Source: an uncultured Verrucomicrobiae bacterium (GTDB lineage: Bacteria > Verrucomicrobiota > Verrucomicrobiia > Limisphaerales > Palsa-1400). From it: 64,000 bases of DNA. The DNA lies in the NCBI GenBank assembly GCA_963707025.1, contig CAVPOM010000008.1:32001-96000 (forward strand), given 5' to 3'. The notes beneath the pieces are model-generated. The model saw only the letters and a list, made by a program, of their open reading frames with translations, was not told where the DNA came from and searched no databases. A program made the position numbers and the translations under genes. This document shows, piece after piece, positions 34,821-56,121 of this stretch. How positions within the stretch are numbered: the first letter of the stretch is position 1; every line of letters starts with the position of its first letter.

Positions 34821-34950
34821 GTATGAAATCGCCTTTAAACTTAATCCTCCCTGTCCCGATGACGGTAATGGGCGCTGCCCATTCTCCTCCGCGTGAGAAA
34901 GAAGACTGTGACGTGGATTTGGATTGTGTTCGATTCTCTTATGTCCTAAA

Positions 34951-38727: not shown

Positions 38728-39308
38728 TCCCGCACGAACAGCCTCCATTCTGGGATGCCGTGGGCGTTGCGAATGAGGGCCGTGGCCGGCAATTCCTTCG
38801 GCGCGCGCGGCACTGAGAGCAGCTTCAGGCCGGCTTCGTGCGGCAGGCGGTTGCCTTTGCGGGCGTTCACCTCCTTCCCGGCCCAAACCAGGTTGTCCCA
38901 GGCGTTCTTGCCACCGCGCGAGCGGGGTAGGACGTGATCCATGCTGCCTTCCTCGGGGCGCAGCACACGGCCGGTGTATTGGCAGCGGTTGCCGTCGCGC
39001 TCGCGAATGGCGCGGGCGCACAGCTTCGGGCGCTTCTTGGGCACCTTGGCGTAATTCACCGCCACGATCACCGTCGGCACGCGGATTGGACCGCGGACGG
39101 TTCGCACCGCATTGTCCTGCGGGCGCATGGGCAGCGTAATCCACTCGTCCCAGGAAACGGGACGAATGTGATTTTCCCCTTCGATTTCCAGGCCGGTCGC
39201 CACGTTCGTCGCCATCATGCAGAAGGCCTCCTGCGGCGTCCGGACGTTGACGGCCTGCCAGTTGCGGTTGAGCACCAGCACCATCGCTTTGTTCAGTATG
39301 TCGTTCAT
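38724..39308 (-). CDS. HNH endonuclease
   Basis: VLVLN..W, RD...CQYTG, DHVLPRSRGG..WDNLV and N..KGN motifs. Confidence 0.92.
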   Translation of the reverse strand: MNDILNKAMVLVLNRNWQAVNVRTPQEAFCMMATNVATGLEIEGENHIRPVSWDEWITLPMRPQDNAVRTVRGPIRVPTVIVAVNYAKVPKKRPKLCARAIRERDGNRCQYTGRVLRPEEGSMDHVLPRSRGGKNAWDNLVWAGKEVNARKGNRLPHEAGLKLLSVPRAPKELPATALIRNAHGIPEWRLFVRE

Positions 39309-39502
39309 AAAAATGTCTGCATACGGCCACCGTGCTTGTCGCGGCGGGGTGTTTGTTCTTTGTTGAGGCATCCCCGGCGGCGAGATCGAGACGCTTCCTG
39401 AGCATCATTCCGTGTCCAGCCCAGACGAGCGTGCTTCCGGCTGGCCTTCGGCACGTTTTTCGCGCATTTTGGGATTGAAGCGTTCGAATTCTGGAGAAAA
39501 TC

Positions 39503-40207
39503 ATGAGACCTTACGTGATCTGCCACATGTGTACGACGATCGACGGTAAAATCCTGGGCGATCGTTGGGGCAAACTTCCCGGCTGCAAAGACAGCGCCAC
39601 GCTCTTCGAAACCACGGCGGCCAGCTTTGGCATCGGCGCCTGGCTTGTGGGCACGACTACGATGAAAGAATTTGCCGGGCGAAACGTGAAACTGCCCCCC
39701 GCCAGGAAACCGGTCGTTCATCGGGACCACATTGCCGACAAAAATGCCAGGCGACTGGCGATCGGTGTGGATGCGAAGGGCGTTTTGCGCTTCCAAGAGA
39801 ACGAAGTGGACGGCGATCATGTGGTCCTGCTTATCACCGATCGTGTCGGTGACGATTACCTGGCGCACCTCCAGGCCGCCGGCGTCTCCTATCTCTTCTG
39901 CGGCCAGAAGGAAGTGGACCTGCACGTTGCCCTTGGCAAGCTGGGCAGCAGTTTTCATCTACGCAAGCTGATGCTCCAGGGCGGTGGAAAGTTCAACGGC
40001 GCCATGCTCCACGCCGGGCTTGTCGATGAAATCAGCCACGTCACCGTGCCAGTCGCCGACGGCGGCGTTGGCATCTCGAGCTTTTTCGACATTCCCGGCA
40101 ACCCGCCGCCCAAATCCGCTGCCACTCTCCGCCTCCTGTCGTGGAAACGACTGCCAGGCAGCGTGACGTGGCTGCGCTACCGCGTCGTCGTTAAGCATAC
40201 GCGCTGA
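39503..40207 (+). CDS. RibD C-terminal/dihydrofolate reductase-like protein
   Basis: RPYVICHM...DGKI and GGG..NG..L.AGLVDEIS motifs. Confidence 0.85.
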   Translation: MRPYVICHMCTTIDGKILGDRWGKLPGCKDSATLFETTAASFGIGAWLVGTTTMKEFAGRNVKLPPARKPVVHRDHIADKNARRLAIGVDAKGVLRFQENEVDGDHVVLLITDRVGDDYLAHLQAAGVSYLFCGQKEVDLHVALGKLGSSFHLRKLMLQGGGKFNGAMLHAGLVDEISHVTVPVADGGVGISSFFDIPGNPPPKSAATLRLLSWKRLPGSVTWLRYRVVVKHTR

Positions 40208-40278
40208 CCGCGGAGCAGGCCGCTGTAATACGCCCGTCGCGCAGCAGACATTCCTTGGTCGGGTTGGCTTGCGGAAAT

Positions 40279-40353
40279 TGGCTGCCTCGCCCGGTTTTGC
40301 TCCAGGTCCTCCGGTGTCAGAGACCGGCGCGCTCCTGATTACGCCACGAGGCA
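40279..40353 (-). tRNA. tRNA-Gln(CUG), atypical T-loop
   Basis: CCGGT-CTCTGAC-ACCGG arm; encoded CCA. Confidence 0.85.
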
Positions 40354-40388
40354 ATGGCCCGCCGAGCGGCAGCCCGGAGGGAGAAGAT

Positions 40389-40462
40389 TGGTCGCCCGGG
40401 GAGGTTCTGCCCCTCCGATTTCTGGGTGTAGGCCAGACGTGATGCTATTTCACCACCGGGCG
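40389..40462 (-). tRNA. tRNA-Val(UAC), C33
   Basis: TCTGG-CCTACAC-CCAGA; CCA. Confidence 0.8.
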
Positions 40463-40467
40463 GAAAT

Positions 40468-40542
40468 TGGCTGCGGGAGCCGGGTTCGCACCGACAACTG
40501 CGCTTTCAAAGAGCGCCGAGTTGCTGGTTACTCCATCCCGCA
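40468..40542 (-). tRNA. tRNA-Gln(UUG)
   Basis: GCGCT-CTTTGAA-AGCGC; CCA. Confidence 0.88.
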
Positions 40543-40548
40543 ACAAAA

Positions 40549-40625
40549 TGGTGGAGCCGGAGGTAGTTGCAACCTCACCATACCGGATTAAAAGTCCGGT
40601 GCCGGTCTTCTGTGGCATCAGCTCC
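40549..40625 (-). tRNA. tRNA-Lys(UUU)
   Basis: CCGGA-CTTTTAA-TCCGG; CCA. Confidence 0.85.
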
Positions 40626-40632
40626 AGGAAAT

Positions 40633-40653
40633 TGGTGCTCGCGGTGGGGCTTG
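40633..40653 (-). pseudogene. 3' tRNA fragment
   Basis: ...CAAGCCCCACCGCGAGCACCA with no matching 5' half. Confidence 0.45.
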
Positions 40654-40837
40654 GGAAACTCCAATAATCACCAAAGGGAAACCGGCGCGGCCGGCATCCC
40701 AGATTCCCTTTGCCTCCGTTTCCGATCCTGCGGGTGTTGGTAAATGTTGGAGTCGCGATTGCGCACCCGCGCACTGGCACTCAAGCGGCCTCTGCGCACA
40801 CAAGCCAGGCCGATTCCTTGAAAAGTTTTCAGTTAAA

Positions 40838-41602
40838 TTGCATCAAAAAAGCTGGCAAAATGGTGTCGTTCACCCTATATTTACACACATAAATGCATCA
40901 CCAGATGACATCCGAAAAGCGGCAGTGGCCGACGCTCGAAGGACGCTTGAGTCAGCCGCTCACTTCACGCGTGGAGGCGGTGCGCCAGCTCCAGACCACG
41001 ATGCCGATTACGCCTGTCGCGCAGGCCGTGTTGAAGCGGAGCAACGGCACCTCATCCAATGGGCCAAAGAAAACGGGAAACTAGGCTCAAGCGGTCGGTT
41101 GCCGCCCGTGTTTGCTCAGGGTGGAGAGCATGATGTCTTTTTTCAAAAATGCACCCAGCGGTATCTCAAGGCGACACGGCAGGATCGACACAAGGGATAC
41201 GGCATTGCCCTCGGTTCGCACACGCACGGTGCAACCCCTGCCGAGTATCTCGACCGTCTCTTCCTTCAGAACTGCATTTTCGATGATGATATTCGGCTTG
41301 AGCGCGTCGTGCAGAACGATGGCAAACCCATAATTATCACATCCCAACCAGCCATCAAAGGAAGCACCCCACGGCAAGACGGACTGGACGAATTGATGAT
41401 CGGGAAGGGCTACGAAAAACTGGCAGAAGGGGCTTATTACGATGAAGGGGCCGGCCTATTGCTGTACGACCTTTTCCCTCGCAACGCCATCCAAGCTGCC
41501 GACGGACATATTTATCCCATTGATCCCGTCATCCAACGCATTACGCCGGACTTTGGGCAGTTTTTGCGGCATGAGCCTTACACGATCGACCTCCCCCGCT
41601 AA
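40838..41602 (+). CDS. putative kinase-like domain of the type found in polyvalent proteins
   Basis: GGEH.V, TP.EYL.RL...N..F.DDI, SQP and DL.PRN...IDP motifs; start uncertain. Confidence 0.55.
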   Translation: MHQKSWQNGVVHPIFTHINASPDDIRKAAVADARRTLESAAHFTRGGGAPAPDHDADYACRAGRVEAEQRHLIQWAKENGKLGSSGRLPPVFAQGGEHDVFFQKCTQRYLKATRQDRHKGYGIALGSHTHGATPAEYLDRLFLQNCIFDDDIRLERVVQNDGKPIIITSQPAIKGSTPRQDGLDELMIGKGYEKLAEGAYYDEGAGLLLYDLFPRNAIQAADGHIYPIDPVIQRITPDFGQFLRHEPYTIDLPR

Positions 41603-41709
41603 ACCCTTCATGCTGCGCACTCGTCTGCGGATTGGGCAAGCGGACTTATTGCGTCCGACTTATTGCGTCACCTTCCGCAATGATAATCGGGTCCGGTAAC
41701 GCCCAGGAA

Positions 41710-41768
41710 CCCGACGCTCATCTAGCGTGACGCTGTGGATAAAACTGCTCACTTTGAGCTACATGCGC
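41710..41768 (-). pseudogene. 5' tRNA-like fragment
   Basis: GCGCATG-TA-GCTC-AAAGT-GAGC D-arm plus ACGCT/AGCGT arm; 3' acceptor strand absent. Confidence 0.5.
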
Positions 41769-41773
41769 GAAAA

Positions 41774-41865
41774 TGGCGGAATGCCGTGGACTTGCACCAC
41801 ACTCCTGTTTCCAGGAGCGCACTGTTTAGCGAACAGGCCCGGGCCCCTCGTCCGGTTGGCATTCC
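41774..41865 (-). tRNA. tRNA-Ser(GCU), C33
   Basis: loop TCGCTAA; long variable arm CTCCTG-GAAA-CAGGAG; G73-CCA. Confidence 0.85.
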
Positions 41866-41869
41866 AGAT

Positions 41870-41953
41870 TGGTCGGCGTGGGGAGACTTGCACTCCCAAG
41901 GCTGTTCGATCTTGAGTCGAACCGGTCTGCTATTCCCGATTAACCACACGCCG
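41870..41953 (-). tRNA. tRNA-Leu(CAA), atypical fold
   Basis: TTCGA-CTCAAGA-TCGAA; no long variable arm. Confidence 0.75.
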
Positions 41954-42036
41954 GTCGGCGACCCGGGACTTGCACCCGGAAGGCTCGGCGATTTTAAGTC
42001 GCCGGGGTCTGCTGTTCCCGCTGAAGCCAGTCGCCG
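41954..42036 (-). tRNA. tRNA-Leu(UAA), atypical fold, no full CCA
   Basis: GGCGA-CTTAAAA-TCGCC; abuts the next tRNA. Confidence 0.75.
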
Positions 42037-42041
42037 TAAAA

Positions 42042-42125
42042 TGGTGGGCATGAAGGGACTTGCACCCCCAAGGCTGCCAGATTCTGAGTCTGGACCCTCT
42101 GCTGTTCGGGTTAAACCACATGCCC
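42042..42125 (-). tRNA. tRNA-Leu(CAG), atypical fold
   Basis: CCAGA-CTCAGAA-TCTGG; CCA. Confidence 0.75.
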
Positions 42126-42132
42126 GTGAAAT

Positions 42133-42209
42133 TGGCAATCCCGGAAGGACTCTCACCCTCATCTCCGACGTTTCGAAGCGTCGCGCTCTGCTCATTGAGC
42201 TACGGGAGC
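42133..42209 (-). tRNA. tRNA-Arg(UCG), 8-nt anticodon loop as sequenced
   Basis: CGACG-CTTCGAAA-CGTCG; weak top of acceptor stem. Confidence 0.7.
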
Positions 42210-42281
42210 GTTGAAATTGGCGGTCGTGCTCCAGCGCCTGCGAATCGCTTTTTGCCCGAAAGCTTGAGACGATGCAGGCGT

Positions 42282-43110
42282 ATGAAGAAAACAGTTCTGA
42301 TCACGGGAGCGTCCTCCGGTATTGGCCAGGCGGCGGCCAAGGTATTTGCAGGCAACGACTGGAACGTCATTGCCACCATGCGCCAGCCGGCGGCGGATTC
42401 GGAATTGGCCCGCCTGCCTGGCGTATTGGTCACATGCCTGGATGTGCAGGATCGAGAGAGCATTGACGCGGCCGTTGCGGACGGTGTTGAGCGGTTCGGC
42501 CGGATCGACGCCTTGATTAACAACGCAGGATTCAGTCTGTTCGGCGTCTTCGAGGCGATTTCCCGCGAAAAGATTCAAGAACAATTCGACGTCAACGTCT
42601 TCGGTGTGATGGACGTTCACGCGGGCGCTGTTGCCGCATTTCCGGCGGAACAGGAGCGGCTTGATTATCAACATCAGTTCGCGCGCGGGGCTGGTCGGCC
42701 TGCCCATGATTTCGCTCTATTGCGCGGGCAAATATGCGCTGGAAGGGTTTTCCGAGGCGCTGGCTTACGAACTGGCGTCGCAGAACATCGTCATCAAGGT
42801 TGTCGAACCTAGCGGCGGCGTCACCGGCACCAGCTTCTCCCAGAGGATGGCCCAGGAAAAGACTGCCGGCACCCTGCCCGCCGATTACGACGATTTTATT
42901 GCCCGCACCAGCGCGATTTTCGCCACCATGCAGGCGGCCCGGAAAACCACCGCAGACGACGTGGCCCGCGTTATCTATGAGGCCGCGACGGACGGATCGA
43001 GCCGGTTTCGCTATTTCATCGGCGAGGACGTTGGAGACTTCGTCCAAGCGAAGCGCGAGAAATCCGACCAGGACTACATTCATTTCATGCGCGCGCGCTT
43101 TTCCTCTTGA
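42282..43110 (+). CDS. SDR-family oxidoreductase (frameshift near 42620)
   Basis: TGASSGIG, NNAG and YCAGK motifs in two frames. Confidence 0.85.
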
Positions 43111-43117
43111 CTGGAAA

Positions 43118-43192
43118 TGGTGGGTTGCCGCGGAATTGCACCGCGTTCTCGCCGGTTAAGAGCCGGGACTTCACTGTAAAAGTTTGCAACCC
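43118..43192 (-). tRNA. tRNA-Lys(CUU)
   Basis: CCGG-CTCTTAA-CCGG; CCA. Confidence 0.82.
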
Positions 43193-43193
43193 A

Positions 43194-43267
43194 GACGCGA
43201 CACGAAGGCGGAGTTGAACCGCCGCAGCCAGGTCTGTGATGCCCTGGCCGGCGCCGGTGTTCGCGTC
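43194..43267 (-). ncRNA. tRNA-like RNA without D-arm or CCA
   Basis: GACGCG-A-ACAC/GTGT-CGCGTC closing stem, GCCAGG/CCTGGC hairpin, GGCGG-TTCAACT-CCGCC T-arm. Confidence 0.55.
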
Positions 43268-43277
43268 GCGAAAGTAT

Positions 43278-43372
43278 CCCCAAGCACGCTGAATCTGGCG
43301 TTTGGCCAGATGGCCGTGCGCAAGCACCTTCGACCGTGCGGAGTCTCTGCCGGCAGGCCAGATTCACTTGGG
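43278..43372 (-). ncRNA. structured RNA with bulged terminal stem
   Basis: CCCAAG-TGAATCTGGC ... GCCAGATTCA-GCGTG-CTTGGG. Confidence 0.5.
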
Positions 43373-43375
43373 AAA

Positions 43376-43466
43376 TGGTCGGGCATCAGGGTAACGCGCC
43401 CTGTATTCCGGTTTGGAAGGCGTTTGCACGCGGCCATCAGCGTGTTTCTCTCAACACCTATGCCCG
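43376..43466 (-). tRNA. tRNA-Gly(UCC) with 16-nt insertion in the anticodon arm
   Basis: perfect CGGGCAT/ATGCCCG acceptor, D and T arms, CTTCCAA loop preceded by GGCCGCGTGCAAACGC. Confidence 0.7.
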
Positions 43467-43522
43467 GAGAAATGGAATTAATCGTCGTTGTTGGTTTTCT
43501 CAAAAGACGCAACAATCCAGCC

Positions 43523-44269
43523 ATGACGATTCCGGCTGAATTGGTCCAACGTCTTGCCACTGCCAAAAGCGTGACCGTGCTCACAGGCGCTGGCGTATCC
43601 GCGGAAAGCGGCGTCCCCACCTTTCGCGATGCCCAAACCGGCCTGTGGGCCAAATACAGTCCCGAAGAACTGGCCACTCCGCGCGCCTTCCGACGCAATC
43701 CCCGCCTCGTTTGGGAGTGGTATGAGTGGCGGCGGAAGCTTGTCGCCGGCGCCAAACCAAACCCAGCGCACTTCGCCTTGGTGGAAATGGAGGGCCTCTT
43801 TCTGCGGTTCCATCTCATTACGCAAAACGTGGACGGTCTTCATCAACGCGCCGGAAGCCGGCACGTCATCGAGCTGCACGGCAATATCACGCGCACGAAA
43901 TGCTCCGACGAAAGCACGATTGTTTCGAGTTGGAAAGACACGGGTGACGTCCCGCCGAAATGTTCGGCCTGTGGCGGCCTGTTGCGCCCCGATGTGGTTT
44001 GGTTCGAAGAGCCGATGCCGGAAGAGGAGATGCAAGAGGCCATGACGGCGAGCACGCATTGCGACTTCTTCTTCTCCATTGGGACATCCACCGTTGTTTA
44101 TCCGGCGGCCGCCCTGCCATCGGAGGCATTGCGCAGCGGAGCGACCGTGGTGGAGATCAATCCGCAACCCACACCATTCACGCCGCAGGCGCATTTGGCT
44201 CTGGCTGGGGCGGCCGGGGTTGTGTTGCCCGAATTGGTGAGGGCTATCAGCGCCTCGCGCCGCTTTTGA
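43523..44269 (+). CDS. cobB: NAD-dependent protein deacylase (sirtuin)
   Basis: TGAGVSAESGVPTFR, TQNVDGLH, ELHG, RPDVVWF and GTS motifs. Confidence 0.93.
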   Translation: MTIPAELVQRLATAKSVTVLTGAGVSAESGVPTFRDAQTGLWAKYSPEELATPRAFRRNPRLVWEWYEWRRKLVAGAKPNPAHFALVEMEGLFLRFHLITQNVDGLHQRAGSRHVIELHGNITRTKCSDESTIVSSWKDTGDVPPKCSACGGLLRPDVVWFEEPMPEEEMQEAMTASTHCDFFFSIGTSTVVYPAAALPSEALRSGATVVEINPQPTPFTPQAHLALAGAAGVVLPELVRAISASRRF

Positions 44270-44272
44270 AAA

Positions 44273-44347
44273 TGGAATCCCGCGTGGGGGGCGCACCCAC
44301 TTTTGCGGCTTTGCAGGCCGCCGCCTGAGCTGTTCGGCCAACGGGAC
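44273..44347 (-). tRNA. tRNA-Cys(GCA)
   Basis: GCGGC-CTGCAAA-GCCGC; U73-CCA. Confidence 0.85.
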
Positions 44348-44352
44348 GCATT

Positions 44353-45099
44353 TCAGATTTCGACGACCAATGAAGGATTAAACCCTTTGCAGCGCTCATC
44401 CGGGTAGCCCAGTTGATTTGTCAGGATACGGGTTGACCCCATCACGTAGTCCACGTTGTAATGCGTGTGTCCGTGGATCCAGAGAGGAACGCCACTCTGT
44501 TCGACCAACGAGTCCAAGTCGGAAGCAAACGCCGCTTTAAGTGGACTGTCCGCGTGATAGAGCGCTTCTGACCGGGCACTCGGTGCATGATGCGTCACAA
44601 CGATGGTGCGGGCGCGATCACATTTGGCCAGCGCGCGGCGCAGCCAGGCGACAGATTCCGCGTGCAATCTGGCGGTGTCACATGCGCGCAGCCTGCGATT
44701 TTCTGTGCTGAACTGAACGATGCCGTAGTCGCTCATGATGGCCTCAGCTACGCGCATCGATCCATCCAGATCGTCACCCAACTGAAAATCTGTCCATAAG
44801 GTGCATCCCAAGAACGTGTAGCCGTTGATTTCCACGGCGTCGTTCTCCAGCAGATGGATGTTGCTGCCATCTGTTTCTCGTTTCAGGGTTTCGGTCAGCT
44901 CGGGCAAGGAGTGGCGATAGAACTCGTGGTTTCCTAAAACGTAAATGACCGGCTTGGCGAAGAATTGATTTCTCGCCCAGATACGCCCTTCGCGGCCAAG
45001 ATGAACGTCACCCGCCAACACCACGACATCCGCGTCGGTCACGGGGATTTTGACTGCTCCGAATTCAAAGTGCAGATCGGCCAAAATGTGTAAACGCAT
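44353..45099 (-). CDS. calcineurin-like metallophosphoesterase
   Basis: DLH, AGD, GNHE, THH and HGHTH motifs. Confidence 0.92.
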   Translation of the reverse strand: MRLHILADLHFEFGAVKIPVTDADVVVLAGDVHLGREGRIWARNQFFAKPVIYVLGNHEFYRHSLPELTETLKRETDGSNIHLLENDAVEINGYTFLGCTLWTDFQLGDDLDGSMRVAEAIMSDYGIVQFSTENRRLRACDTARLHAESVAWLRRALAKCDRARTIVVTHHAPSARSEALYHADSPLKAAFASDLDSLVEQSGVPLWIHGHTHYNVDYVMGSTRILTNQLGYPDERCKGFNPSLVVEI

Positions 45100-45198
45100 A
45101 GGTAACTTTATGTTAGGTGAAAATTGGTTAGGAGTTCAAAGTGCGGGCGGAAGCTTCCGCCTCCGCCCGCGTTGTTCCTGGCGTCCTTGAACCGTTCG

Positions 45199-46906
45199 CT
45201 ATTCGCGAACAAAGTCCGCAATGACGGCTGGCACCGTCGTGTCGAAGCCGACCACGTCCAGCATGCCCGCGGTCGTTTGGGTCGGCGAGGGTGAAGCCGT
45301 TGGAGGTCATGCCCACAACGACCGCCTTCGCGTCGCCGACGAACTCGTCGCGATACTGGCGCAGGGCCTGGGCCGGATGGATGTTGCCCGCCCACGTCTC
45401 GCTGTCCGTATAGGTGATAAACGCCGACACGTTCAGCTTGTTGCGGGCGGCCCACACCATCGGCAGGGCGCAATCCGTGCCACCCATTGGGATGGCTTCG
45501 ATGCGCTTGATGACGTCGGCCAATCTCATGCGCGGCGAGAGGTTCACACGGGTGATGCCCGGTTCGCCGCCGCCGTGCATGCCACCGTAACCACCGCCCG
45601 CCGGAGCCGAGAACGCGATGATCTCGCATTCCGGTTCGGTTGCGGCCGTGATCAGTGCCATCGCCGCGCTGGCTTCGCGGGCCGAGATGCACGAACCCGC
45701 GATCATGGAACCATCCATCGAGCCGCTTACGTCAAGCGCGAGCAGCACCGGCTTGTTGCACGGTTCCACGTTCTGGAACGTCGCGTAAAACGCTTCGTCC
45801 AGCGCGTCCACCACCGCCGACACCGGCGACCACGCAAGCGAACCCTTGTCGCCGTGACCCTGGGCGTAGACCTTCTGCGCCACAAGGACCGCCAGCGGGT
45901 GGATGCGCGCACGCTTGAGCGCCATCTCGTCCTGCAGCTTGCGGACGATCAATCGCTTGGAGTCGCTGAACGGAGCCAGCAGACCGAGGCTCGTCATCTT
46001 GCCGAGGTTGCGGATCATCGCCGTCATCGGCATACGTTCCAGCAAGGCCTCCCACACAACGACTTCATTGAGCCACTGCGTTGGGATGGCTTCGCGCGGC
46101 AGGTCGAACTCGTTGATGATCTTCACGATCTCGTCCGCGCTCAATGCGCGCTTGGCCCGCTCGAAGGCTTCGATGAGCTTCGGCAGTGCGCCGACCGGGC
46201 CATACTTCGCGACACGGTCTTCACCGCGCACTCTGCGCTTCACTTCGCGTTCACCCAACGAATCCGCATGGGAAGCGGAACCTCCGCACAGCAACCAGCG
46301 GAACACCGATTCGTGCTGGGCCGACGGAGCCTTTGGGTGAGCAAGGCGAAGAAGGTCGCCGTGCGACCAACCGTCGCGTTGCTGGTACTTGACCGCCTGG
46401 TGCGCAAGATCATCGGCATCGCGGTAAACATACCAGTCGCCAACGGCGTTGCGCAGGCCACGGCCCCAGCCGCGCATGGCATTGACGTATTCGGCGAAGT
46501 GGAACAAGTGCGTGCCAATGCGGCAGACCTTGTTCAGGCTCGCAAACGCGAGCGCCTTCGCCTGGGCATCACCATGCGTGACGGCCAGCGCGAGGGCGAA
46601 GATGGCCGGATCGTTCTTGGGCGCGCGTCCGGCATCGCTGATCTCAACGATGCGGTTGACGGCACGGACTCCGTCGGCCCTGATGCAGCGGAGAATCGCC
46701 TCGTGGTTCTGCTTCACGAGATCGCGTTCCGCGATGTAATACGTGCCTCCTTCGGCGCCGAGGACGAGGAAACGGTCGAGCCGCGTCCAGTCATCCACTT
46801 CCCACGAGAAGCCGCCGCCCGAATTGCGAACCTGGTTCGCGCCCGGGATCGGCTGCGACTGCGGGGTGATGCGGCGATTAAACTGACGTGCGTAATTGAT
46901 AGCCAT
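45199..46906 (-). CDS. rsr: Ro60/TROVE-domain RNA-binding protein (Rsr); apparent 1-nt frameshift near 45268
   Basis: RLDRFLVLG.EGGTYY, GWGRGLR.AV..WY, KYQQRDGWSH.DLLRL.H and vWA DVSGSM motifs; the shifted frame gives ...GMLDVVGFD...FVRE*. Confidence 0.95.
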
Positions 46907-46966
46907 GGTGGCCTCCTTCTTGTGAGCGTGCCGCCAACTTCCGGCACGGGTTTTCTATCGGTTAAA

Positions 46967-47032
46967 CTGCGGACAAGTTGGTGAACGTGGGATGGTCATT
47001 CGTAGTGATAACCCATGTTCTTCGGCCCGCAG
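46967..47032 (-). ncRNA. Y RNA 1 (minimal, no tRNA-like domain)
   Basis: CTGCGGGCCGAAGAACATGGGTTATC...CCCACGTTC...CTTGTCCGCAG; resembles the Ro60-binding stem of Y RNAs. Confidence 0.8.
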
Positions 47033-47047
47033 TCAATGGGCTTGCGA

Positions 47048-47295
47048 TTATTCGCGGAAAAAAGTGATTCCTCAGAGCGCCGTCATATCGTCCGGAGCGG
47101 AGGCAGCATTTCTTAAAAGCTGCGTCCGGAGCCGCATGGGCAGAGGTCGTTCCGCCCCAGCTTTTCGCTGAGTTCCTTATTCCCGTGAACGAGGCGCACG
47201 CCGCGTTTGACGTTCGTTTCGGACGGGAAGCCCTTGCGGCGTTTGCTGGTGATTTCGAAACTGGCGTCTTCATGATCATGTGTGTTGTTTGCCAT
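47048..47295 (-). CDS. SEC-C motif small protein (frameshifted)
   Basis: [28 protein letters not shown] upstream. Confidence 0.75.
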
Positions 47296-47357
47296 ACGGC
47301 CTCCTCGTTTGAGTATTGCGGTTGAAACATCGTGGCCCGCGCCACGATGAGATAGCG

Positions 47358-47465
47358 GATGGGCAAGGGACGACCCGGGAATTGCTCTATCCACTGAGCT
47401 ACTCCTCGTTGCCGAGGAGACTGGATTCGAACCAATGACCGATAACCCGATGTCTTCGGCCCATC
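47358..47465 (-). ncRNA. Y RNA 2 (YrlA-like, permuted tRNA domain)
   Basis: GATGGGCCGA/CTTGCCCATC stem; T-arm TTCGAAT, closed acceptor hairpin, then D-arm. Confidence 0.9.
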
Positions 47466-47473
47466 AAATTGAA

Positions 47474-47598
47474 AGCGGGCAAGAAAGCGACCGTGGAATT
47501 GCCCAGCGTGCTGCCTTTACACCACTGCGGAACGCTCCGCGGGACGGAATTGAACCGCCGCTGCCGGGTTATCGAGAACCCACAATTTACGGCCCGCT
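47474..47598 (-). ncRNA. Y RNA 3 (YrlA-like)
   Basis: AGCGGGCCG/CTTGCCCGCT stem; T-acceptor-D order. Confidence 0.85.
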
Positions 47599-47607
47599 GA
47601 AAGGGAC

Positions 47608-47736
47608 CGACGGATAAGAAACGAACTGGGAATTTACGTGCTCTACCCCTGAGCTACCCCGGCATTGGAGCCGGAGGCGGGACTCGAACCCGCAACCTCG
47701 TCGTTATCAGCGATAACCCAATCCTGCGACCCGTCG
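47608..47736 (-). ncRNA. Y RNA 4 (YrlA-like)
   Basis: CGACGGGTCG/CTTATCCGTCG stem; GGGTTATC; T-acceptor(TCCA loop)-D order. Confidence 0.88.
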
Positions 47737-47745
47737 AAAAAGCCG

Positions 47746-47859
47746 CGACGGACAAAGAGCGATATGGGAAACAATCGGTCGCCCGATTGCGCGGGGTTCG
47801 AACCCGCTCATCCCGCAGTGCGGAACTTTTCCAGATAACCCATGATCAACGACCCGTCG
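47746..47859 (-). ncRNA. Y RNA 5 (T-arm plus hairpins, no clear D-arm)
   Basis: CGACGGGTCG/TTTGTCCGTCG stem; GGGTTATC; GCGGGTTCGAACCCCGC. Confidence 0.8.
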
Positions 47860-47866
47860 GAAAAAC

Positions 47867-48004
47867 TCGATGGACAAGTGCTGCCGCAGATAGGGATTCG
47901 CAAGCGGGAATCGAACCCGCGTCACCAAACTCACGTTCGGCGGCTCTCTCACGGTGAGCAACCACCCCTGTTGGAGCGATAACCTGCAACATTCGGCCCA
48001 TCGA
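47867..48004 (-). ncRNA. Y RNA 6 (non-permuted tRNA-like domain)
   Basis: TCGATGGGCCGA/CTTGTCCATCGA stem; GGTTATC; D-anticodon-T order. Confidence 0.82.
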
Positions 48005-48007
48005 AAT

Positions 48008-48083
48008 TGGTCAGGAAGCCGGGATTTGCACCCGGACCGTCGCGTTCACAACGCGGAATGCTGCTGTTACACCACAATCCTGA
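48008..48083 (-). tRNA. tRNA-His(GUG), atypical acceptor
   Basis: CGCG-TTGTGAA-CGCG; A73, no G-1:C73. Confidence 0.75.
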
Positions 48084-48090
48084 TTTGAAA

Positions 48091-48166
48091 TGGAGCCCCT
48101 GGTCGGACTCGCACCGACGAATACGAGTTTACGAAACTCGCCCTGTGGCTGCTGAGGCACAGGGGC
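48091..48166 (-). tRNA. tRNA-Thr(CGU)
   Basis: CGAGT-TTCGTAA-ACTCG; CCA. Confidence 0.85.
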
Positions 48167-48170
48167 ACAA

Positions 48171-48248
48171 TGGTGTCCACGGCAGGAATCGCGCCTGCGA
48201 CCTCCACCTTCGCGCGGTGGCGCTCTGATCTAACTGAGCTACGCGGAC
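48171..48248 (-). tRNA. tRNA-Arg(GCG), G32 C33
   Basis: CCACC-GCGCGAA-GGTGG; CCA. Confidence 0.75.
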
Positions 48249-48251
48249 AAT

Positions 48252-48329
48252 TGGCATCCGTGATCGGACTTTCACCGATTAGGCCCGGCTTGAAAGACCG
48301 GCTGCTCGATCTGCTTTGCATTCACGGAC
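48252..48329 (-). tRNA. tRNA-Glu(UUC)
   Basis: CCGGT-CTTTCAA-GCCGG; G73-CCA. Confidence 0.85.
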
Positions 48330-48333
48330 AGGA

Positions 48334-48409
48334 TGGCCGCTGGAGTCGGAATTGCGCCGACACTTCCTGTGCTTCAAGCAGGTGTGCAGACTGACTACAC
48401 CATCCAGCG
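48334..48409 (-). tRNA. tRNA-Phe(GAA), atypical
   Basis: CCTG(C)-TTGAAGC-(A)CAGG; C1-G72, G73. Confidence 0.7.
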
Positions 48410-48417
48410 GGCAAAGC

Positions 48418-48636
48418 GGTGCGCGGCAGCTTGGGTCAGCTACCTTGAAGGGCTGTCTAAGAAGCTTGAGCCTTGCGGGCTGCGGCTTGCATTTTGAACG
48501 AGCTGACCGATGTGGTTTGACAACTCGGCATCAACATCAGCAGGTAATTGGATTTTCGGTCCAATAAGGAACGTTTAGAGCGCTCCAGATTTTGACAGCG
48601 TGCTCCATCGGCGGCATTCCGCCACCACCGCGCACC
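48418..48636 (-). ncRNA. structured RNA downstream of the DIP1984-like gene
   Basis: GGTGCGCGG/CCGCGCACC closing stem; GGTCAGCT/AGCTGACC stem enclosing a CAA-repeat loop; several hairpins. Confidence 0.6.
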
Positions 48637-48658
48637 TGAATCAGAACCGCTGGCGGAA

Positions 48659-49105
48659 TCAAGGATTCACGCTGCGGGTGAAGTTGAACTCGTCCAGCGC
48701 ATCTTGCAGCGACTGAATTTCGGCGTTCAACTCGGTGACAAGTTTGTCCACGTCCACCTTGCCGAGCTGGGCGACATATTCGACCTCGTAGCTTGCATCG
48801 GCAAAACCGCGTCCTTCGTGGAAAACGCCGGCCTTGGTGTCCAGCGCGTTCAACGTGGTGGCCAGACCCTTGAGTTCCGCCAGCCGGAAAATCCGGTCGT
48901 AGATTTCCACGTTGGCGGCCGCGACGGCGGCCTTGACCTTGACCAATTCGTCGAGCTTAACGCGCAGGCGCGTCAAGACTTCGCGATTGTCGTAGTCGAA
49001 CTTCTGTTTAGTGGAACGGGAGTTTTGTTTGGTGAGCAGATCCTTCAACTGGGCGACTTCGCCGGCCAGTTGGTTTTTCATTTTAAGTGCTTTGGCGATT
49101 TTCAT
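48659..49105 (-). CDS. DIP1984-like coiled-coil protein
   Basis: MK.AKALK.K..L...; K.AV..AN; LQD.LD.FN pattern. Confidence 0.65.
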   Translation of the reverse strand: MKIAKALKMKNQLAGEVAQLKDLLTKQNSRSTKQKFDYDNREVLTRLRVKLDELVKVKAAVAAANVEIYDRIFRLAELKGLATTLNALDTKAGVFHEGRGFADASYEVEYVAQLGKVDVDKLVTELNAEIQSLQDALDEFNFTRSVNP

Positions 49106-49146
49106 TGGATACCTTTCATTGGTTGCGTGTGTTTGATCGAATGAGT

Positions 49147-49220
49147 TGGTCGTCCCGGCAGGTAACGCTCCTGCTTCTTCCGGTTATCGACCGGAGGCTC
49201 TGCTTTTGAGCTACGAGACG
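49147..49220 (-). tRNA. tRNA-Ile(GAU), C33
   Basis: TCCGG-TCGATAA-CCGGA; CCA. Confidence 0.85.
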
Positions 49221-49394
49221 GTGGTTAATTGAGGCTTCACGCCAAAACGATGCGCGGGGCGGAACACAAGATTGAGCTTCGTGGTCGGGCGGATTCGAAT
49301 GCCACGTTTTGGCTTGTAGCTTCGACGAAAAGGGCATTGACTTTGATGCCGCATTATGGGTTTCACGGGATTTCCTTTCGTTGAGGGTTAAAAC

Positions 49395-49481
49395 TGGCGG
49401 ATGGTGTAGGGATCGCACCCACGCAGCCCGCAGGCTCACTCGGTTTTCAGGACCGGGGCATTACTTCTCTGCCAACCATCC
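49395..49481 (-). tRNA. tRNA-Ser(UGA), C33
   Basis: CGGT-CCTGAAA-ACCG; variable arm AGCC/GGCT; G73. Confidence 0.85.
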
Positions 49482-49489
49482 GTACAAAT

Positions 49490-49563
49490 TGGCTGCCAGA
49501 CTTGGACTCGCACCAAGACAAGCGGCTTAACAGGCCACCGTGCTACTTTGACACCACCTGGCA
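49490..49563 (-). tRNA. tRNA-Asn(GUU)
   Basis: GTGGC-CTGTTAA-GCCGC; G73-CCA. Confidence 0.88.
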
Positions 49564-49564
49564 A

Positions 49565-49640
49565 TGGCGCTGCCGGCAGGATTCTCACCTGCATCTATCC
49601 GCTTAGAAGACGGATGCCTGATTTGTTCGGCCACGGCAGC
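49565..49640 (-). tRNA. tRNA-Arg(UCU)
   Basis: TCCGT-CTTCTAA-GCGGA; CCA. Confidence 0.88.
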
Positions 49641-49647
49641 GTTGAAA

Positions 49648-49723
49648 TGGTCGGAATGGCAGGATTTTCACCTGCGGCCTCCCGGTCCCAAGCCGGGTGC
49701 TCTAAAGACTGAGCTACATTCCG
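49648..49723 (-). tRNA. tRNA-Pro(UGG)
   Basis: CCCGG-CTTGGGA-CCGGG; C1-G72, A73. Confidence 0.9.
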
Positions 49724-49730
49724 TGAAAAA

Positions 49731-49806
49731 TGGCGGACCCGAAGGGAGTTGCACCCTCAACCCTCCCGCAGACAACGGGGCGCTCTGCTGATTGAGCTAC
49801 GGATCC
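49731..49806 (-). tRNA. tRNA-Asp(GUC)
   Basis: CCCG-TTGTCTG-CGGG; G73-CCA. Confidence 0.85.
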
Positions 49807-49810
49807 GAAA

Positions 49811-49898
49811 TGGTGGGAAGTGCTGGTAATGCTCCAGTCGTCGCTTCCGACATGTTTTGAGACGTCCGGGTTACGGCCGGATTGCCGGATCACTTCCC
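49811..49898 (-). tRNA. tRNA-Tyr(GUA), D-armless, long variable region
   Basis: TCCGG-CCGTAAC-CCGGA; GGGAAGTG/CACTTCCC acceptor; A73-CCA. Confidence 0.7.
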
Positions 49899-49904
49899 TG
49901 AGAT

Positions 49905-49977
49905 TGGTAGCGGGGGTGGGAGTTGCGCCCACGGAGGCTGAGCTTATGGGGCTCGCCTGAATCTCATTCTCCCCGCA
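49905..49977 (-). tRNA. initiator-like tRNA-Met(CAU), reduced D-arm
   Basis: GAGC-CCCATAA-GCTC; 1:72 mismatch. Confidence 0.75.
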
Positions 49978-49983
49978 GTGAAA

Positions 49984-50058
49984 TGGTGGAGTCGGTGGGT
50001 AGCGCGCCCACATCAACCTGCTTGCAGGGCAGGTGCATTGCTTGTCTGCCACGACCCC
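49984..50058 (-). tRNA. tRNA-Ala(UGC), C33
   Basis: CCTGC-CCTGCAA-GCAGG; G3:U70 present. Confidence 0.9.
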
Positions 50059-50064
50059 GGAAAA

Positions 50065-50136
50065 TGGCAGGCTGCCTCCGTGCTGCCCGGAGTAAGCTGA
50101 GTTTTGGAGACTCGGCCGCGTGCTGACGCTCAGCCT
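50065..50136 (-). tRNA. tRNA-Trp(CCA), reduced D-arm
   Basis: GAGT-CTCCAAA-ACTC; G73-CCA. Confidence 0.78.
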
Positions 50137-50145
50137 GTGCATGAA

Positions 50146-50220
50146 TGGTGCGGCTGCCGGGAGTTGCGCCCGGACTTCCTCCATGGCGAGGAGATATTCT
50201 GCTGCTTAAATCACAGCCGC
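50146..50220 (-). tRNA. tRNA-Gly(GCC), C33
   Basis: TCTCC-TCGCCAT-GGAGG; CCA. Confidence 0.85.
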
Positions 50221-50221
50221 G

Positions 50222-50258
50222 AAAGTAAAAGGGCCGGGAGCGTTCAGGCTCCCGGCCC
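50222..50258 (-). terminator. terminator-like hairpin just before the first tRNA
   Basis: GGGCCGGGAGC-CTGAAC-GCTCCCGGCCC followed by TTTTACTTT. Confidence 0.7.
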
Positions 50259-50520
50259 ATGCCATTTCAACAAAGAACAAACACCTCTTGGTGATCTATG
50301 CGATCCCAACCCGCGGTTTCACGGCGGCTGTTTCGGTGTTTAGGGGCACACCTCCTGCGAAGCCCTTGATATGTAAATCTAAAATTCGTCTCGCTCGTCT
50401 TGATGACGCTGTCTTCCGGTCATGGGCAGACCCCACCGGTGAGGCTTCTCTGCTCGTCCTCGCCAAATTCAAGTTGTCGCCAGAAGACATCACCTGGATG
50501 TCGCTTTGTTCTTGTTCACA
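50259..50520 (-). ncRNA. structured leader RNA containing boxA-like TGTTCTTTG
   Basis: AAGAACAAA/TTTGTTCTT closing helix; GACATC/GATGTC, GCAGA/TCTGC and GGTGT/ACACC stems. Confidence 0.5.
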
Positions 50521-50567
50521 GATTGTCCGTCTTTCGTCGTCACTCGTTCACATTCATGGTGTTCAGG

Positions 50568-50606
50568 AAAAATAAAAAACCCTGCTTGCATTTCGGCAAG
50601 CAGGGT
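50568..50606 (-). terminator. intrinsic terminator (attenuator)
   Basis: ACCCTGCTTGC-CGAAAT-GCAAGCAGGGT followed by TTTTTATTTTT. Confidence 0.9.
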
Positions 50607-50628
50607 GGAAAAAATTCTGTTTCGTTCG

Positions 50629-50799
50629 TTACCTGCTTGCCATGAGTCTATCCAACTTGACCTGTTGTTCCGACGCGGTCCTGGATAGGCTAAGGCTAAA
50701 CACACTACCCGGGTTATACCGGCTATGACGTGTCCCAATGGTCATTGGGGCCGTCGTAATCGGCCAACTCGTGGCTGATATGTTTAAGCAAGTTTTCAT
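50629..50799 (-). CDS. putative 56-aa leader peptide MKTCLNISATSWPITTAPMTIGTRHSRYNPGSVFSLSLSRTASEQQVKLDRLMASR
   Basis: starts just after the promoter; last codons overlap antiterminator GGCAAGCAGG; contains all 20 amino acids. Confidence 0.7.
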   Translation of the reverse strand: MKTCLNISATSWPITTAPMTIGTRHSRYNPGSVFSLSLSRTASEQQVKLDRLMASR

Positions 50800-50812
50800 T
50801 GAACTTATGCGA

Positions 50813-50841
50813 AAGCTATCATGGCGTGTTCATGTCGTCAA
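50813..50841 (-). promoter_or_regulatory. sigma70-type promoter of the tRNA array
   Basis: TTGACG-N17-TAGCTT with extended TG; AT-rich UP-like tract at 50842-50880. Confidence 0.75.
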
Positions 50842-50959
50842 CTACTATTTGAAAATATTTTGAGATTTATTTATTTCTCTCGAATTCAAGTATCGGATTA
50901 GTTGATTTGAGATTCTGCGGCAGCGTCAATCGGGAATCAAATACCACTCGTGACTGCGA

Positions 50960-52058
<1,099 letters not shown>

Positions 52059-54201: not shown

Positions 54202-54651
54202 TCAATCGCTGTTCCGCCAAGTAAGCAAAACGTCGCCCCGGAACCCAGCTATACCCAAACACAGGTACGTGGGGCCGGTCAAGGTCATCCATATCCACGC
54301 CTCTTGGCTTTGTTGCATTCGATCCCGATTCACTTTGAATGGAACTCCTTGGCGCTGATTTCTGCATGCATCGCTGACCCAGGCTTCGATCAAATCGGCC
54401 GTCTCAGCGTCTATCTCACTATCACACCAGCCACCCCACTTCGGCCCGGTGAAGTGGCGTTCAAGGCATTCTGTGCTCCACCGTATTGGGACAAACACCC
54501 CCTCCAGGCCATGATCATTGCACATATGACCGCCAACTTGGTTGTAAATCCACACCCCCGATTTGCAGGGCACAATTAAGCCCGCGCCGTGGTATTCGAG
54601 CAGGTCAATTTTTGGCAAATGTTGCTCGTTTTCAAAAATGTTCTCGTCCAT
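54202..54651 (-). CDS. hypothetical protein
   Basis: NQVGG..C....EG.FVP...EAW...LTW.NSD pattern. Confidence 0.6.
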   Translation of the reverse strand: MDENIFENEQHLPKIDLLEYHGAGLIVPCKSGVWIYNQVGGHMCNDHGLEGVFVPIRWSTECLERHFTGPKWGGWCDSEIDAETADLIEAWVSDACRNQRQGVPFKVNRDRMQQSQEAWIWMTLTGPTYLCLGIAGFRGDVLLTWRNSD

Positions 54652-54698
54652 ACGTCAAATCGATCTGGTTGGTTAAGAAGATGCATGGGAAAAGTGCG

Positions 54699-55137
54699 TT
54701 ATACTCCATAACCCTCCATCGCTTGCAGCACTTTGTTCACCTCTCCTGCCCGCAAACAGTCCAAGGGCCTTGTTCCACCGAGGAAACCCTGGTTTGAAAG
54801 GAAAAATAGCATTCGTCCAAAGTCATCCAGCCGGCAACCCGCACTGAGGATTTTAAGAGTCTCTTCCAAGCCGTCCAGCAACTCGCGGTCTTTGATTTGC
54901 CACACGGGGAAACGCGCCGCGCTCGTCCGTCCGTCATTCAGGCAATGATCTGTCCCCTGTGATACATTTTCAAAATGGCCGCTTTGGAGATGCCAAGCTC
55001 TCCCGCCGCCTTTTCCGCTGACCGGCTTCCCCCATCTGCTTCCATCAGCTTTCGGCGCGCGGTAATTCCCCTGGCCCTGGCCTTGGCCAACCGATTATCA
55101 GCCTCGGGAATTGCCTCGCGCTTTTTCATTTTCACCA
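54699..55137 (-). pseudogene. Xre/MbcA/ParS-like antitoxin (split)
   Basis: ADGG..S...AA..LGIS...FPVWQ...LGG.RPLD.LRAG across two ORFs. Confidence 0.55.
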
Positions 55138-55338
55138 TAGCCATACGACGAGGGAATACAGGCCACCCAGCAATATCGCCCACCCGGCCAGACCGATGGC
55201 ATAGCCTTTCCAGGTGGTGCCCCAAACGCGCCAGTGGTCCATAGAATGAACAGCCCAATATCGAAACAGGTGGGGATCGAAATGGGCGATCACCCGCACC
55301 AATAAAATGAACGGCAAGAGGACAATTATTTTCATGCG

Positions 55339-55743
55339 TCAAGAAGGCTCCCCCGATTCCAGCTCGTAGAGCATTCGGCTCACTTGCGCCTCCGTCATCC
55401 CGTTCAATCTCCGCCGCAGGGCTTCGGCAATGCTCTCTCCTCGGTTCCGCTGTATTTTGCCAGCGTCCAAAAGAGCTGCCAGCCGGTACAAGGCGCCAGA
55501 CCGAAAGTCCTCTTCGGGGTCCGTGCCTGATTCAGGGTCAAGAAATGAACCGGTGACACCACTCGGGCCCCAGCCGAGATCCTCGTCGATCTCCGCCCCG
55601 GTCCGGCGATCAAACTCCCAAGCGCCGCAAATAATGCGATCTGCCGTGAGCTGTGTCACCTTGAACCTCATCGGTTTTGGAATTCCTCCGAACCAGCGCA
55701 AGACAAAATCCCCAACTGCTATTTCTGCAAGTTTTTTGCTCAT
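55339..55743 (-). CDS. hypothetical protein
   Basis: 134-aa ORF in a coupled minus-strand string. Confidence 0.6.
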   Translation of the reverse strand: MSKKLAEIAVGDFVLRWFGGIPKPMRFKVTQLTADRIICGAWEFDRRTGAEIDEDLGWGPSGVTGSFLDPESGTDPEEDFRSGALYRLAALLDAGKIQRNRGESIAEALRRRLNGMTEAQVSRMLYELESGEPS

Positions 55744-56060
55744 AATTCTTTCCCGATGCCGGATGACGGCTCAACCGCCGTGACGGCTGCGGAGTGCCCC
55801 TTCGATGCTTCCAACTCGACCGGCTTGAGAGTAAGCGAGTGTTCGTGTCGCTGGTAATCAACCAGAAGACCCACACCGCGAAGCACATTTTTGATTTCCT
55901 CCGCCCGTAGATTGGGGAACCGTTTGACGAACTCTCCAACGCTCTCCCCATCGGCCAGCGCTTCCAACAGAGCGCGCAGCGGCACTGTTGAACCCTTGAA
56001 GACCCAGGCCCTCTGGCCGGTTCGTCGCGAGACGACCTGGCCTGGCGGGCTTTTCACCAT
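55740..56060 (-). CDS. DUF433-family protein
   Basis: VFKGSTVP...L.E.LA.GES..EF...FP.L. Confidence 0.7.
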   Translation of the reverse strand: MVKSPPGQVVSRRTGQRAWVFKGSTVPLRALLEALADGESVGEFVKRFPNLRAEEIKNVLRGVGLLVDYQRHEHSLTLKPVELEASKGHSAAVTAVEPSSGIGKEL

Positions 56061-56121
56061 GCCCCGAGTTTGGTTTGTGGAATCGCTTCATAGCTTCTCC
56101 TGTTGGCGTATCGTCCACAAC

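Follow-up and report, generated by a model that had tools for sequence, protein, structure and literature searches.

What is the nature of the six short units that crowd the space ahead of a Ro60 gene (rsr) in an uncultured Verrucomicrobiae bacterium, and what has placed them end to end with a row of tRNA genes? The locus lies in a stretch of 64,000 nucleotides, called the window below (contig CAVPOM010000008.1, positions 32,001-96,000; coordinates are those of the window), from a genome that was searched over its 6.96 Mb. All six units are on the minus strand, the strand of rsr, 58-1100 nt upstream of that gene. With their counterparts in related loci they form a conserved, structured RNA family of several classes, built on a handle of the Ro60 type and physically continuous with a tRNA array. 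I propose that they are six paralogous Y RNAs, partners of the adjacent Ro60, in a co-transcribed tRNA-array island for RNA quality control and repair, and I put the probability of this explanation at roughly 0.7.

Six units on a common handle

The first-pass annotation of this DNA, made from its letters alone, had placed six units here, and direct reading finds all of them at those positions on the minus strand, each with all three motifs that the six have in common. A unit begins with GGGCCG or GGGUCG, continues 8-9 nt further on with GGUUAUC (GGUUCUC in unit D), and has a 3' strand that reads CUUGUCC, UUUGUCC, CUUAUCC or CUUGCCC. The pattern GGGYCGN{8,9}GGTTMTC occurs seven times in the genome, six of them inside the cluster, against three for the reversed pattern used as a control, and this clustering is far above chance. 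Read 5' to 3' on the minus strand, the locus runs from the row of tRNA genes through units A to E, a GC-rich hairpin, a ribosome-binding site (RBS) with a short open reading frame (ORF) that encodes a SEC-C motif, unit F and rsr to a phosphoesterase gene. There are five units in tandem and a sixth behind the SEC-C ORF, as had been claimed, the tandem spacers being 2-8 nt with the unit bounds chosen here. Unit F ends 58 nt ahead of the rsr ATG (46906).

The product of rsr (45128-46906, minus strand, 592 aa) is, on the strength of its sequence, a true Ro60. It matches Pfam TROVE at 163.8 bits and the Ro60 vWA domain at 168.2 bits, and in the Protein Data Bank (PDB) it matches Xenopus Ro60 (1yvp, 407.3 bits) and an entry named RNA-binding protein RO60 (9nen, 403 bits), with the Rsr of Deinococcus radiodurans (2nvo, 346 bits) below both. 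The last 45 residues (548-592) are aligned in some relatives only, many alignments ending at residue 547.

What differs from unit to unit is the payload, and here the earlier descriptions are upheld by sequence, folds and alignments. Unit A (47864-48005) carries in normal order a D-like hairpin with the stem GCUC/GAGC, a tetraloop hairpin and a T arm (GGGUUCGAUUCCC), an arrangement like that of Yrn1. Unit B (47746-47859) holds a hairpin, a T arm and a hairpin closed by GCGA, and has no D arm. Units C (47607-47737), D (47474-47598) and E (47358-47465) are of the YrlA type, in which T arm, closed acceptor-like stem and D arm follow one another within the handle, as judged by sequence, Rfam alignment and alignment folds. 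C adds a small V hairpin, and the loop of its 7-bp acceptor-like stem begins U-CCA; D, the unit with GGUUCUC, has the D arm GGUGUAAAGGCAGCAC; E closes its own 7-bp acceptor-like stem with a GCAA tetraloop. Unit F (46965-47034) is a minimal Y RNA, made up of handle, upper stem and short loop. I take B to be a relative of the YrlA-type units without a D arm and F to be the bare handle. The motif GNCGAAN0-1G is exact in A (GCCGAAUG), E and F (GCCGAAG); B departs from it with GUCGUUG, C with GUCGCAG and D with GCCGUAA.

Likeness to known RNA families

A search with the Rfam models for Y RNA and YrlA had been suggested as a check, and it bears the claim out in part. One model alone passes its gathering score: RF01656, the stem-bulge RNA of nematodes, gives unit F 42.8 bits against a gathering score of 38, and gives orthologues of F 37.3-39.9 bits. 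I take this to mean that Y RNA ancestry is shared or that the handle has converged, and do not count F a member of the nematode family. The likeness to vertebrate Y1 RNA that had been seen in the letters holds for the terminal stem and GGUUAUC, which are close to those of animal Y RNA; it does not extend to the vertebrate model, Y_RNA (RF00019), which finds F at 16.7 bits (E-value 3.6), too weak to serve as evidence. The sole Rfam Y match of unit B is weak as well (RF01656, 20.2 bits).

The models for the two bacterial families remain below their gathering scores. In the whole genome the YrlA model (RF02553) has three matches, of which C and E are the best two and the third has 18.6 bits (E-value 0.97). 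Chen et al. (2014, PMC4201824) accepted as YrlA the best match in a genome if it lay within 4 kb of rsr on the same strand, and C and E lie that close to rsr, on its strand. Deinococcus_Y_RNA (RF01053) has a single match in the genome at an E-value of 1 or below, and that match is unit A; units of type I, a class found in the related loci described below, score 46.8 and 48.8 bits. A permissive Rfam scan of 39500-51000 found no Y-type match beyond the six units. For YrlA and Yrn1 alike, the architectural features are present and formal Rfam membership is not.

The folds add a second kind of evidence. The terminal stem is predicted from single sequences in A, B, E and F and from alignment folding in all types, and the minimum free energy (MFE) folds of A, E and F have z scores of -3.03, -2.49 and -3.41. 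Compensatory changes are found in every type: 7 of 15 pairs in F (45 sequences), 9 of 32 in C (36 sequences, two of the 38 class members having been left out for their long inserts), 5 of 35 in A (11 sequences) and, counted by script, 17 of 23 predicted pairs in B (49 sequences), 10 of 30 in E (16 sequences) and 7 of 37 in D (9 sequences). When type A is folded as an alignment, the D-like hairpin comes first, then the tetraloop hairpin and last the T arm, with the covariation confined to the tetraloop stem and the first pair of the T stem.

Eleven payload classes in a fixed order

Then there is the evidence of related loci. These are the best 80 of 280 stretches that encode relatives of Ro60 in a collection of species representatives, and their Ro60 proteins are 48-96% identical to that of the window. 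Most are titled as metagenome-assembled genomes of Verrucomicrobiota, Verrucomicrobiia or Limisphaerales, and the few binned to other phyla could reflect transfer or mis-binning. A scan for the motif and for pairing of the flanks found, in 831,871 bases, 248 units on the strand of rsr and 5 on the opposite strand. When the window is counted with the 80 loci, 18 sources have no unit, 7 have one, 6 have two, 11 have three, 12 have four, 13 have five, 9 have six and 5 have seven, all of these being lower bounds because many contigs end inside the locus.

A first clustering of the units, by identity to the six in the window, mixed types, since the common handle dominates identity, and it was replaced by one on the payload only. 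Eleven recurrent classes come out of this, the window's six together with five labelled G to K, and the order of slots recurs as well: (A/I/K)-B-(J)-C-(D/H)-(E/G)-SEC-C-F-rsr. The types that occupy the first slot, A, I and K, have normal-order payloads. Most widely kept are F, with 46 units, and B, with 49. Type J, a class not found in the window, is represented by nine units (in loci L030, L034, L035, L036, L041, L049, L063, L071 and L090; for example L071:4177-4302) and amounts to a near-complete cloverleaf in normal order set on the handle, with an acceptor stem of 4 bp, UA, a D arm, a stem with a short loop where the anticodon arm would stand, and a T arm. Eleven classes with natural swaps at fixed slots make up a comparative set for asking which module goes with which partner.

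The spacers between adjacent units are short (91 measured; median 8 nt, range 5-29) and rich in U (44%, against a background of 20%). The idea that each unit ends in an oligo-U tail did not survive: TTT occurs within 12 nt downstream of 141 of 240 units and upstream of 170 of 240, and only the U-richness of the spacers stands.

Ro60 itself is found in six of 40 sampled relatives of this genome, in none of the five from the same genus and five of the 24 from the same family. It is up to 93% identical across genera, and its distribution is patchy and transfer-like.

Continuity with a tRNA array

Eighteen matches to the tRNA model of at least 29 bits lie on the minus strand between 40282 and 50220, a span of 10 kb with a few ORFs between them; some are downstream of rsr, and the row upstream of the units extends from 50220 to 48008. 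Members that ARAGORN names are His, Thr, Arg, Ser, Asn, Arg, Pro and Asp. Unit A is immediately preceded by four tRNA genes (48008-48409, minus strand; Rfam tRNA 35.3-51.9 bits), of which that at 48337-48409 has the anticodon GAA by a reading of the alignment and is followed by those for Arg, Thr and His (ARAGORN). Unit A starts 2 nt past the encoded CCA of the tRNA-His gene. This gap leaves no room for a promoter, and co-transcription is therefore the simplest reading. In related loci tRNA genes stand before the units, after them and sometimes between them, interspersed in several cases, and in 20 of the 63 loci that bear units a tRNA gene on the same strand ends within 30 nt of the first unit.

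A terminator scan of 44000-51000 called none of the units. It called two strong terminators on the minus strand (50258-50231 and 50606-50579), both upstream of the whole tRNA array, the former just upstream of its topmost match (50149-50220). Between unit E and the SEC-C gene there is an 8-bp GC-rich hairpin (47329-47348, minus strand) with the loop GCGG, followed by GUUUC, possibly a weak terminator or a processing signal to judge by its letters; the same scan did not call it, and contigs from RNA libraries cross it.

The T arm of unit C, the 7-nt 3' strand of its acceptor stem, the discriminator and CCA are identical at 28 of 29 positions to the 3' end of the housekeeping tRNA-Leu(UAA) of the same genome, a match that could owe much to the general conservation of T arms. 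N-CCA opens the acceptor loop in at least 23 of 37 type-C units, and the loop of unit C has the look that would be expected of a junction between two tandem tRNA genes. An origin of YrlA from dimeric tRNA precursors has been raised in the discussion of a 2018 preprint (10.1101/312249). If that is how YrlA arose, an array of Y RNAs joined to an array of tRNA genes, with CCA in the acceptor loop of C, is what one would expect to find.

Several tRNAs of the array score only 30-40 bits, and ARAGORN reads a four-base anticodon (tcga) at 42133-42209. The 88-nt spacer between tRNA genes at 48249-48336 (minus strand) can be drawn by eye as a degenerate tRNA with the anticodon UUC; no tRNA tool calls it, its MFE fold (z -1.86) retains only an 8-bp end stem, which is followed by GCCA, and the candidate was dropped. 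Nor does a phage search give any evidence that the island is a prophage: 354 phage records encode Ro60, all at less than 60% identity and the best at 47.3%, and one mycobacteriophage has annotated tRNAs about 2.8 kb from its Ro gene, not adjoining it. By analogy, the island fits a long array of the horizontally transferred kind.

RNA-library cover

Parts of the window are contained in 17 RNA runs, and contigs were examined from four of them, belonging to four studies. Contigs from the libraries of all four studies cover units, and together they cover every unit. In some runs parts of the stretch have no cover, and these gaps were given no weight. Some bridge neighbours, from F across the SEC-C gene and E into part of D (46953-47535), from E to D (47275-47635), or from B across A to the tRNA-His gene (47746-48117). 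Most of these contigs are 95-99% alike to the window and hence derive from related strains. In runs X5 and X2, contigs join the T arm of C (47699) to the D arm of E (47384) through a different 17-nt acceptor hairpin, and these have the top depth on the stretch, 225.9 in X5 and 29.8 in X2; a related organism with an abundant YrlA variant is the probable source of the joint.

Comparison with published Y RNAs and tRNA arrays

Chen et al. (2014, PMC4201824) described 355 putative YrlAs in 254 bacteria plus 22 phages. That YrlAs are few per locus, as the first-pass annotation had stated, agrees with this published picture, a portion of Table S1 giving at most three per species. Three are listed there beside rsr in Pedosphaera parvula, under Verrucomicrobiae, and up to three in planctomycetes. 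YrlA-type RNAs are therefore not new in this lineage.

Units C, D and E resemble the published YrlAs in the order of their arms and in lying on the strand of rsr within 1 kb of it, and C further has the small V hairpin and a 7-bp acceptor stem like that of the YrlA of M. smegmatis, which is cleaved by RNase P. The three differ in that the Ro60 helix has both its strands conserved here, whereas only the 5' strand is recognisable in the RNAs of Salmonella and M. smegmatis (PMC4201824). They differ too in the exact GNCGAAN0-1G, the 5'-strand motif of that paper, which E has and C and D do not, in the N-CCA of the acceptor loop of C, and in scoring below the gathering score.

The non-permuted payload of unit A had been thought new. 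That claim is not supported, for Yrn1, the main Y RNA of D. radiodurans, is already known to have its T and D arms oriented opposite to those of YrlA (PMC4201824), and the one match of the Deinococcus model in the genome is unit A. As far as sequence can tell, A is Yrn1-like and not new in kind. It has the handle, the UUAUC...CUCCAAC block and the T arm of the RF01053 consensus, its hairpins stand in the order opposite to that of YrlA, and it lies upstream of rsr on the same strand; it differs in belonging to another phylum, in standing alongside YrlA types and in falling short of the RF01053 gathering score. Chen et al. state that BLAST found no Yrn1 orthologues, and they held Yrn1 and YrlA to have evolved independently (PMC4201824).

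Unit F is the animal-like one. Its lower stem agrees with the stem-bulge consensus, as do the UGGGUUAUC block, the CCCA strand and CACCAACUUG-CCG, and the stem-bulge RNAs of RF01656 have been described as the nematode homologue of Y RNAs (PMC4450293). It also has UUAUC at the 5' end of its loop and a bulged cytosine in the lower stem, both named as conserved features in the same paper, and the Ro60 beside it scores nearer to the Xenopus protein than to D. radiodurans Rsr. It is unlike them in being bacterial, in coming probably from a polycistronic tRNA precursor, and in its poor score on Y_RNA.

What goes beyond the published statements is a Yrn1-like RNA outside Deinococcus, in one array with YrlA types, on a common animal-like handle conserved in both strands. 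Yrn1-like, YrlA-like and animal-like Y RNAs share one handle and one array in this locus and in about 60 relatives. Yrn1 and YrlA have earlier been treated as separate lineages, and their residence together on one handle argues for a single diversifying family. A search of the literature on Yrn1 and YrlA since 2015, in whose range Sim et al. (2020) and supplementary file 6 of Chen et al. do not fall, returned only the 2018 structure preprint and passing mentions of YrlA.

The locus also connects Ro60 with L-arrays. It shares with them the 18 same-strand tRNA-model matches in 10 kb, the patchy distribution, and nearby genes for RNA processing and translation, rtcB among them; RNA-processing genes, rtcB being one, are enriched around the published L-arrays, and that of Anabaena is induced by translational stress (PMC8421152). 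It differs in that an array of Y RNAs, with rsr, is embedded in the tRNA array. Neither 'Y RNA' nor 'tRNA-like' occurs in the main text of Santamaria-Gomez et al. (2021, PMC8421152).

A model for the island, and its alternatives

The model predicts that the tRNAs and the Y RNAs are transcribed as a single precursor, which would then be cut into discrete RNAs, and that each RNA would dock on Ro60 through the common handle. Once docked, the payloads would part ways. By analogy with D. radiodurans, the Yrn1-like unit A might tether Ro60 to polynucleotide phosphorylase (PNPase), a tether described, together with a modular model of Y RNAs, in the 2018 preprint (10.1101/312249); a gene for PNPase was found in the genome. 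The tRNA-like units may bring Ro60 to enzymes that recognise tRNA, or the tRNA fold may serve to stabilise them, and the bare handle F may only gate Ro60. An adaptor or decoy function of this sort would be the standard modular model of Y RNAs applied to this locus. Taken as a whole, the island of tRNAs, Ro60 with its Y RNAs, phosphoesterase and RtcB ligase would act in RNA quality control and repair under translational stress.

Several results weigh against this proposal. A promoter scan of 44000-51000 found no promoter-like site on the minus strand from which the supposed precursor could start. The RNA-library contigs show neither ends nor strand nor level, and carry-over of DNA is possible, so they amount to a hint of expression only. 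The gathering score of the YrlA model is 69, and C stops at 43.4 bits, E at 39.8; on Deinococcus_Y_RNA unit A reaches 38.8 against 80; and unit D matches no Rfam Y model at all, its overlapping match being to the tRNA model at 25.1 bits. The MFE folds of C (z -0.52) and D (+0.04) are no better than those of shuffled sequences. Covariation has nothing to say about the D-like stem of type A or most of its T stem, which are invariant. The positions GGGC.G and CUUG.CCG of the handle are invariant across 45 F-type sequences, in part by construction, since units were ascertained by a regular expression that requires the handle.

Might the tRNA-like units instead serve mainly as decoys or sponges for enzymes directed at tRNA (toxin RNases, modification enzymes, RNase P), with Ro60 there just to keep them stable, and so add to the sponge role proposed for the tRNAs of such arrays? 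What the best-known tRNA nucleases attack is the anticodon loop, which all the units lack. It is also awkward for decoys that the tRNA body is slight or absent in F and B, the two types kept most widely, and the strict conservation of the Ro60 handle argues that docking is central. To the credit of the idea, the units lie inside a long tRNA array, and such arrays have been proposed to act as sponges for toxin RNases (PMC8421152), type C retains a 7-bp acceptor stem and N-CCA, and the YrlA of M. smegmatis is a substrate of RNase P (PMC4201824, 10.1101/312249). I consider it unlikely. Quite unlikely, to my mind, is the view that the units are punctuation acting in cis, their stems and U-rich tracts attenuating read-through from the tRNA array and the leader controlling rsr, with free RNAs as by-products. 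A U-rich spacer does lie behind each handle stem, F is 58 nt ahead of the start of rsr, and the +1 frame of the SEC-C gene, taken up below, crosses F, so that its translation could unfold F. But attenuators have no need of a metazoan-like Ro60 helix, of conserved sequences for tRNA-like tertiary contacts, or of eleven recurrent payload classes in fixed order, and the terminator scan passed over every unit. That the units are non-functional debris of recombination between the tRNA genes of a mobile array is very improbable. The acceptor loop of C does resemble the 3' end of one tRNA fused to the 5' end of the next, and the tRNAs of the island do score low on the tRNA model; conservation and covariation nevertheless speak against debris, for the slot order is conserved, every type shows compensatory changes, and the strand bias of 248 to 5 holds across loci whose Ro60 is as little as 48% and as much as 96% identical to that of the window.

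The proposal of six Y RNAs serving the adjacent Ro60 can be carried further, into an account of where such RNAs come from, one that I would call a speculation with the odds against it. Y RNAs would be born and reshuffled in mobile tRNA arrays, the Yrn1-like, YrlA-like and minimal types being paralogues on an ancestral handle of the animal type; new payloads would arise through recombination with neighbouring tRNA genes, and the island would spread horizontally as a back-up kit induced by stress. On the same account RNase P would open type C into a tRNA-like particle that ends in CCA, is possibly chargeable and sits on Ro60, and the +1 frameshift of the SEC-C gene would sense termination or translation stress.

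A candidate frameshift in the SEC-C gene

The ORF with the SEC-C motif (47113-47295, minus strand, with an RBS ahead) lies inside the array and has 60 aa in frame 0, where its stop follows directly on CPCGSGRSF, halfway through the zinc-binding motif. If the reading shifts by +1 at UUU-UAA (47118-47113), KKCC is restored and the match to Pfam SEC-C extends over 19 of 19 positions (39.2 bits); without the shift it covers 13 of 19 and scores 26.6 bits. The +1 frame then crosses unit F and stops just past it, at 46962. Among 30 homologous ORFs upstream of rsr, 27 have a stop directly after the Phe codon (22 UAA and 5 UAG) and 3 have a sense codon. All 27 with the stop have the +1 frame [K/R]xCC-LR(S/T)GR(Y/F)DG...FFPR, which is conserved at the protein level. 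These features suggest a programmed +1 frameshift, conserved and of the prfB type, and I put it forward as a candidate. A literature search on it did not find 'SEC-C motif' among the matches listed.

Neighbouring genes

Downstream of rsr, after a gap of 29 nt, is a gene for a calcineurin-like metallophosphoesterase (44353-45099, minus strand; Pfam Metallophos 54.9 bits, PHROG metallo-phosphoesterase with an E-value of 6.7e-45), and the two genes are probably in one operon. On the same contig, 12-14 kb distant, are genes for RtcB (33426-34985), a protein with an RF-1 domain, like ArfB (33003-33416), and a D-Tyr-tRNA deacylase (32416-32868). The three adjoin one another (32416-34985) and make up a cluster for translation rescue and RNA repair that borders the tRNA island. 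An ORF of 1517 aa (34951-39504, minus strand), with no Pfam or PHROG match, overlaps the start of RtcB. Also on the contig are genes for a kinase of the polyvalent-protein type (40838-41602) and a SIR2 protein (43184-44269). Farther off, at 54202-58229 and 62770-63183, are a DUF6210 protein, a protein with a helix-turn-helix (HTH) and the C-terminal domain of Xre/MbcA/ParS antitoxins, and a short ORF with a match of the integrase N-terminal type, possibly remnants of mobile elements or toxin-antitoxin systems outside the island.

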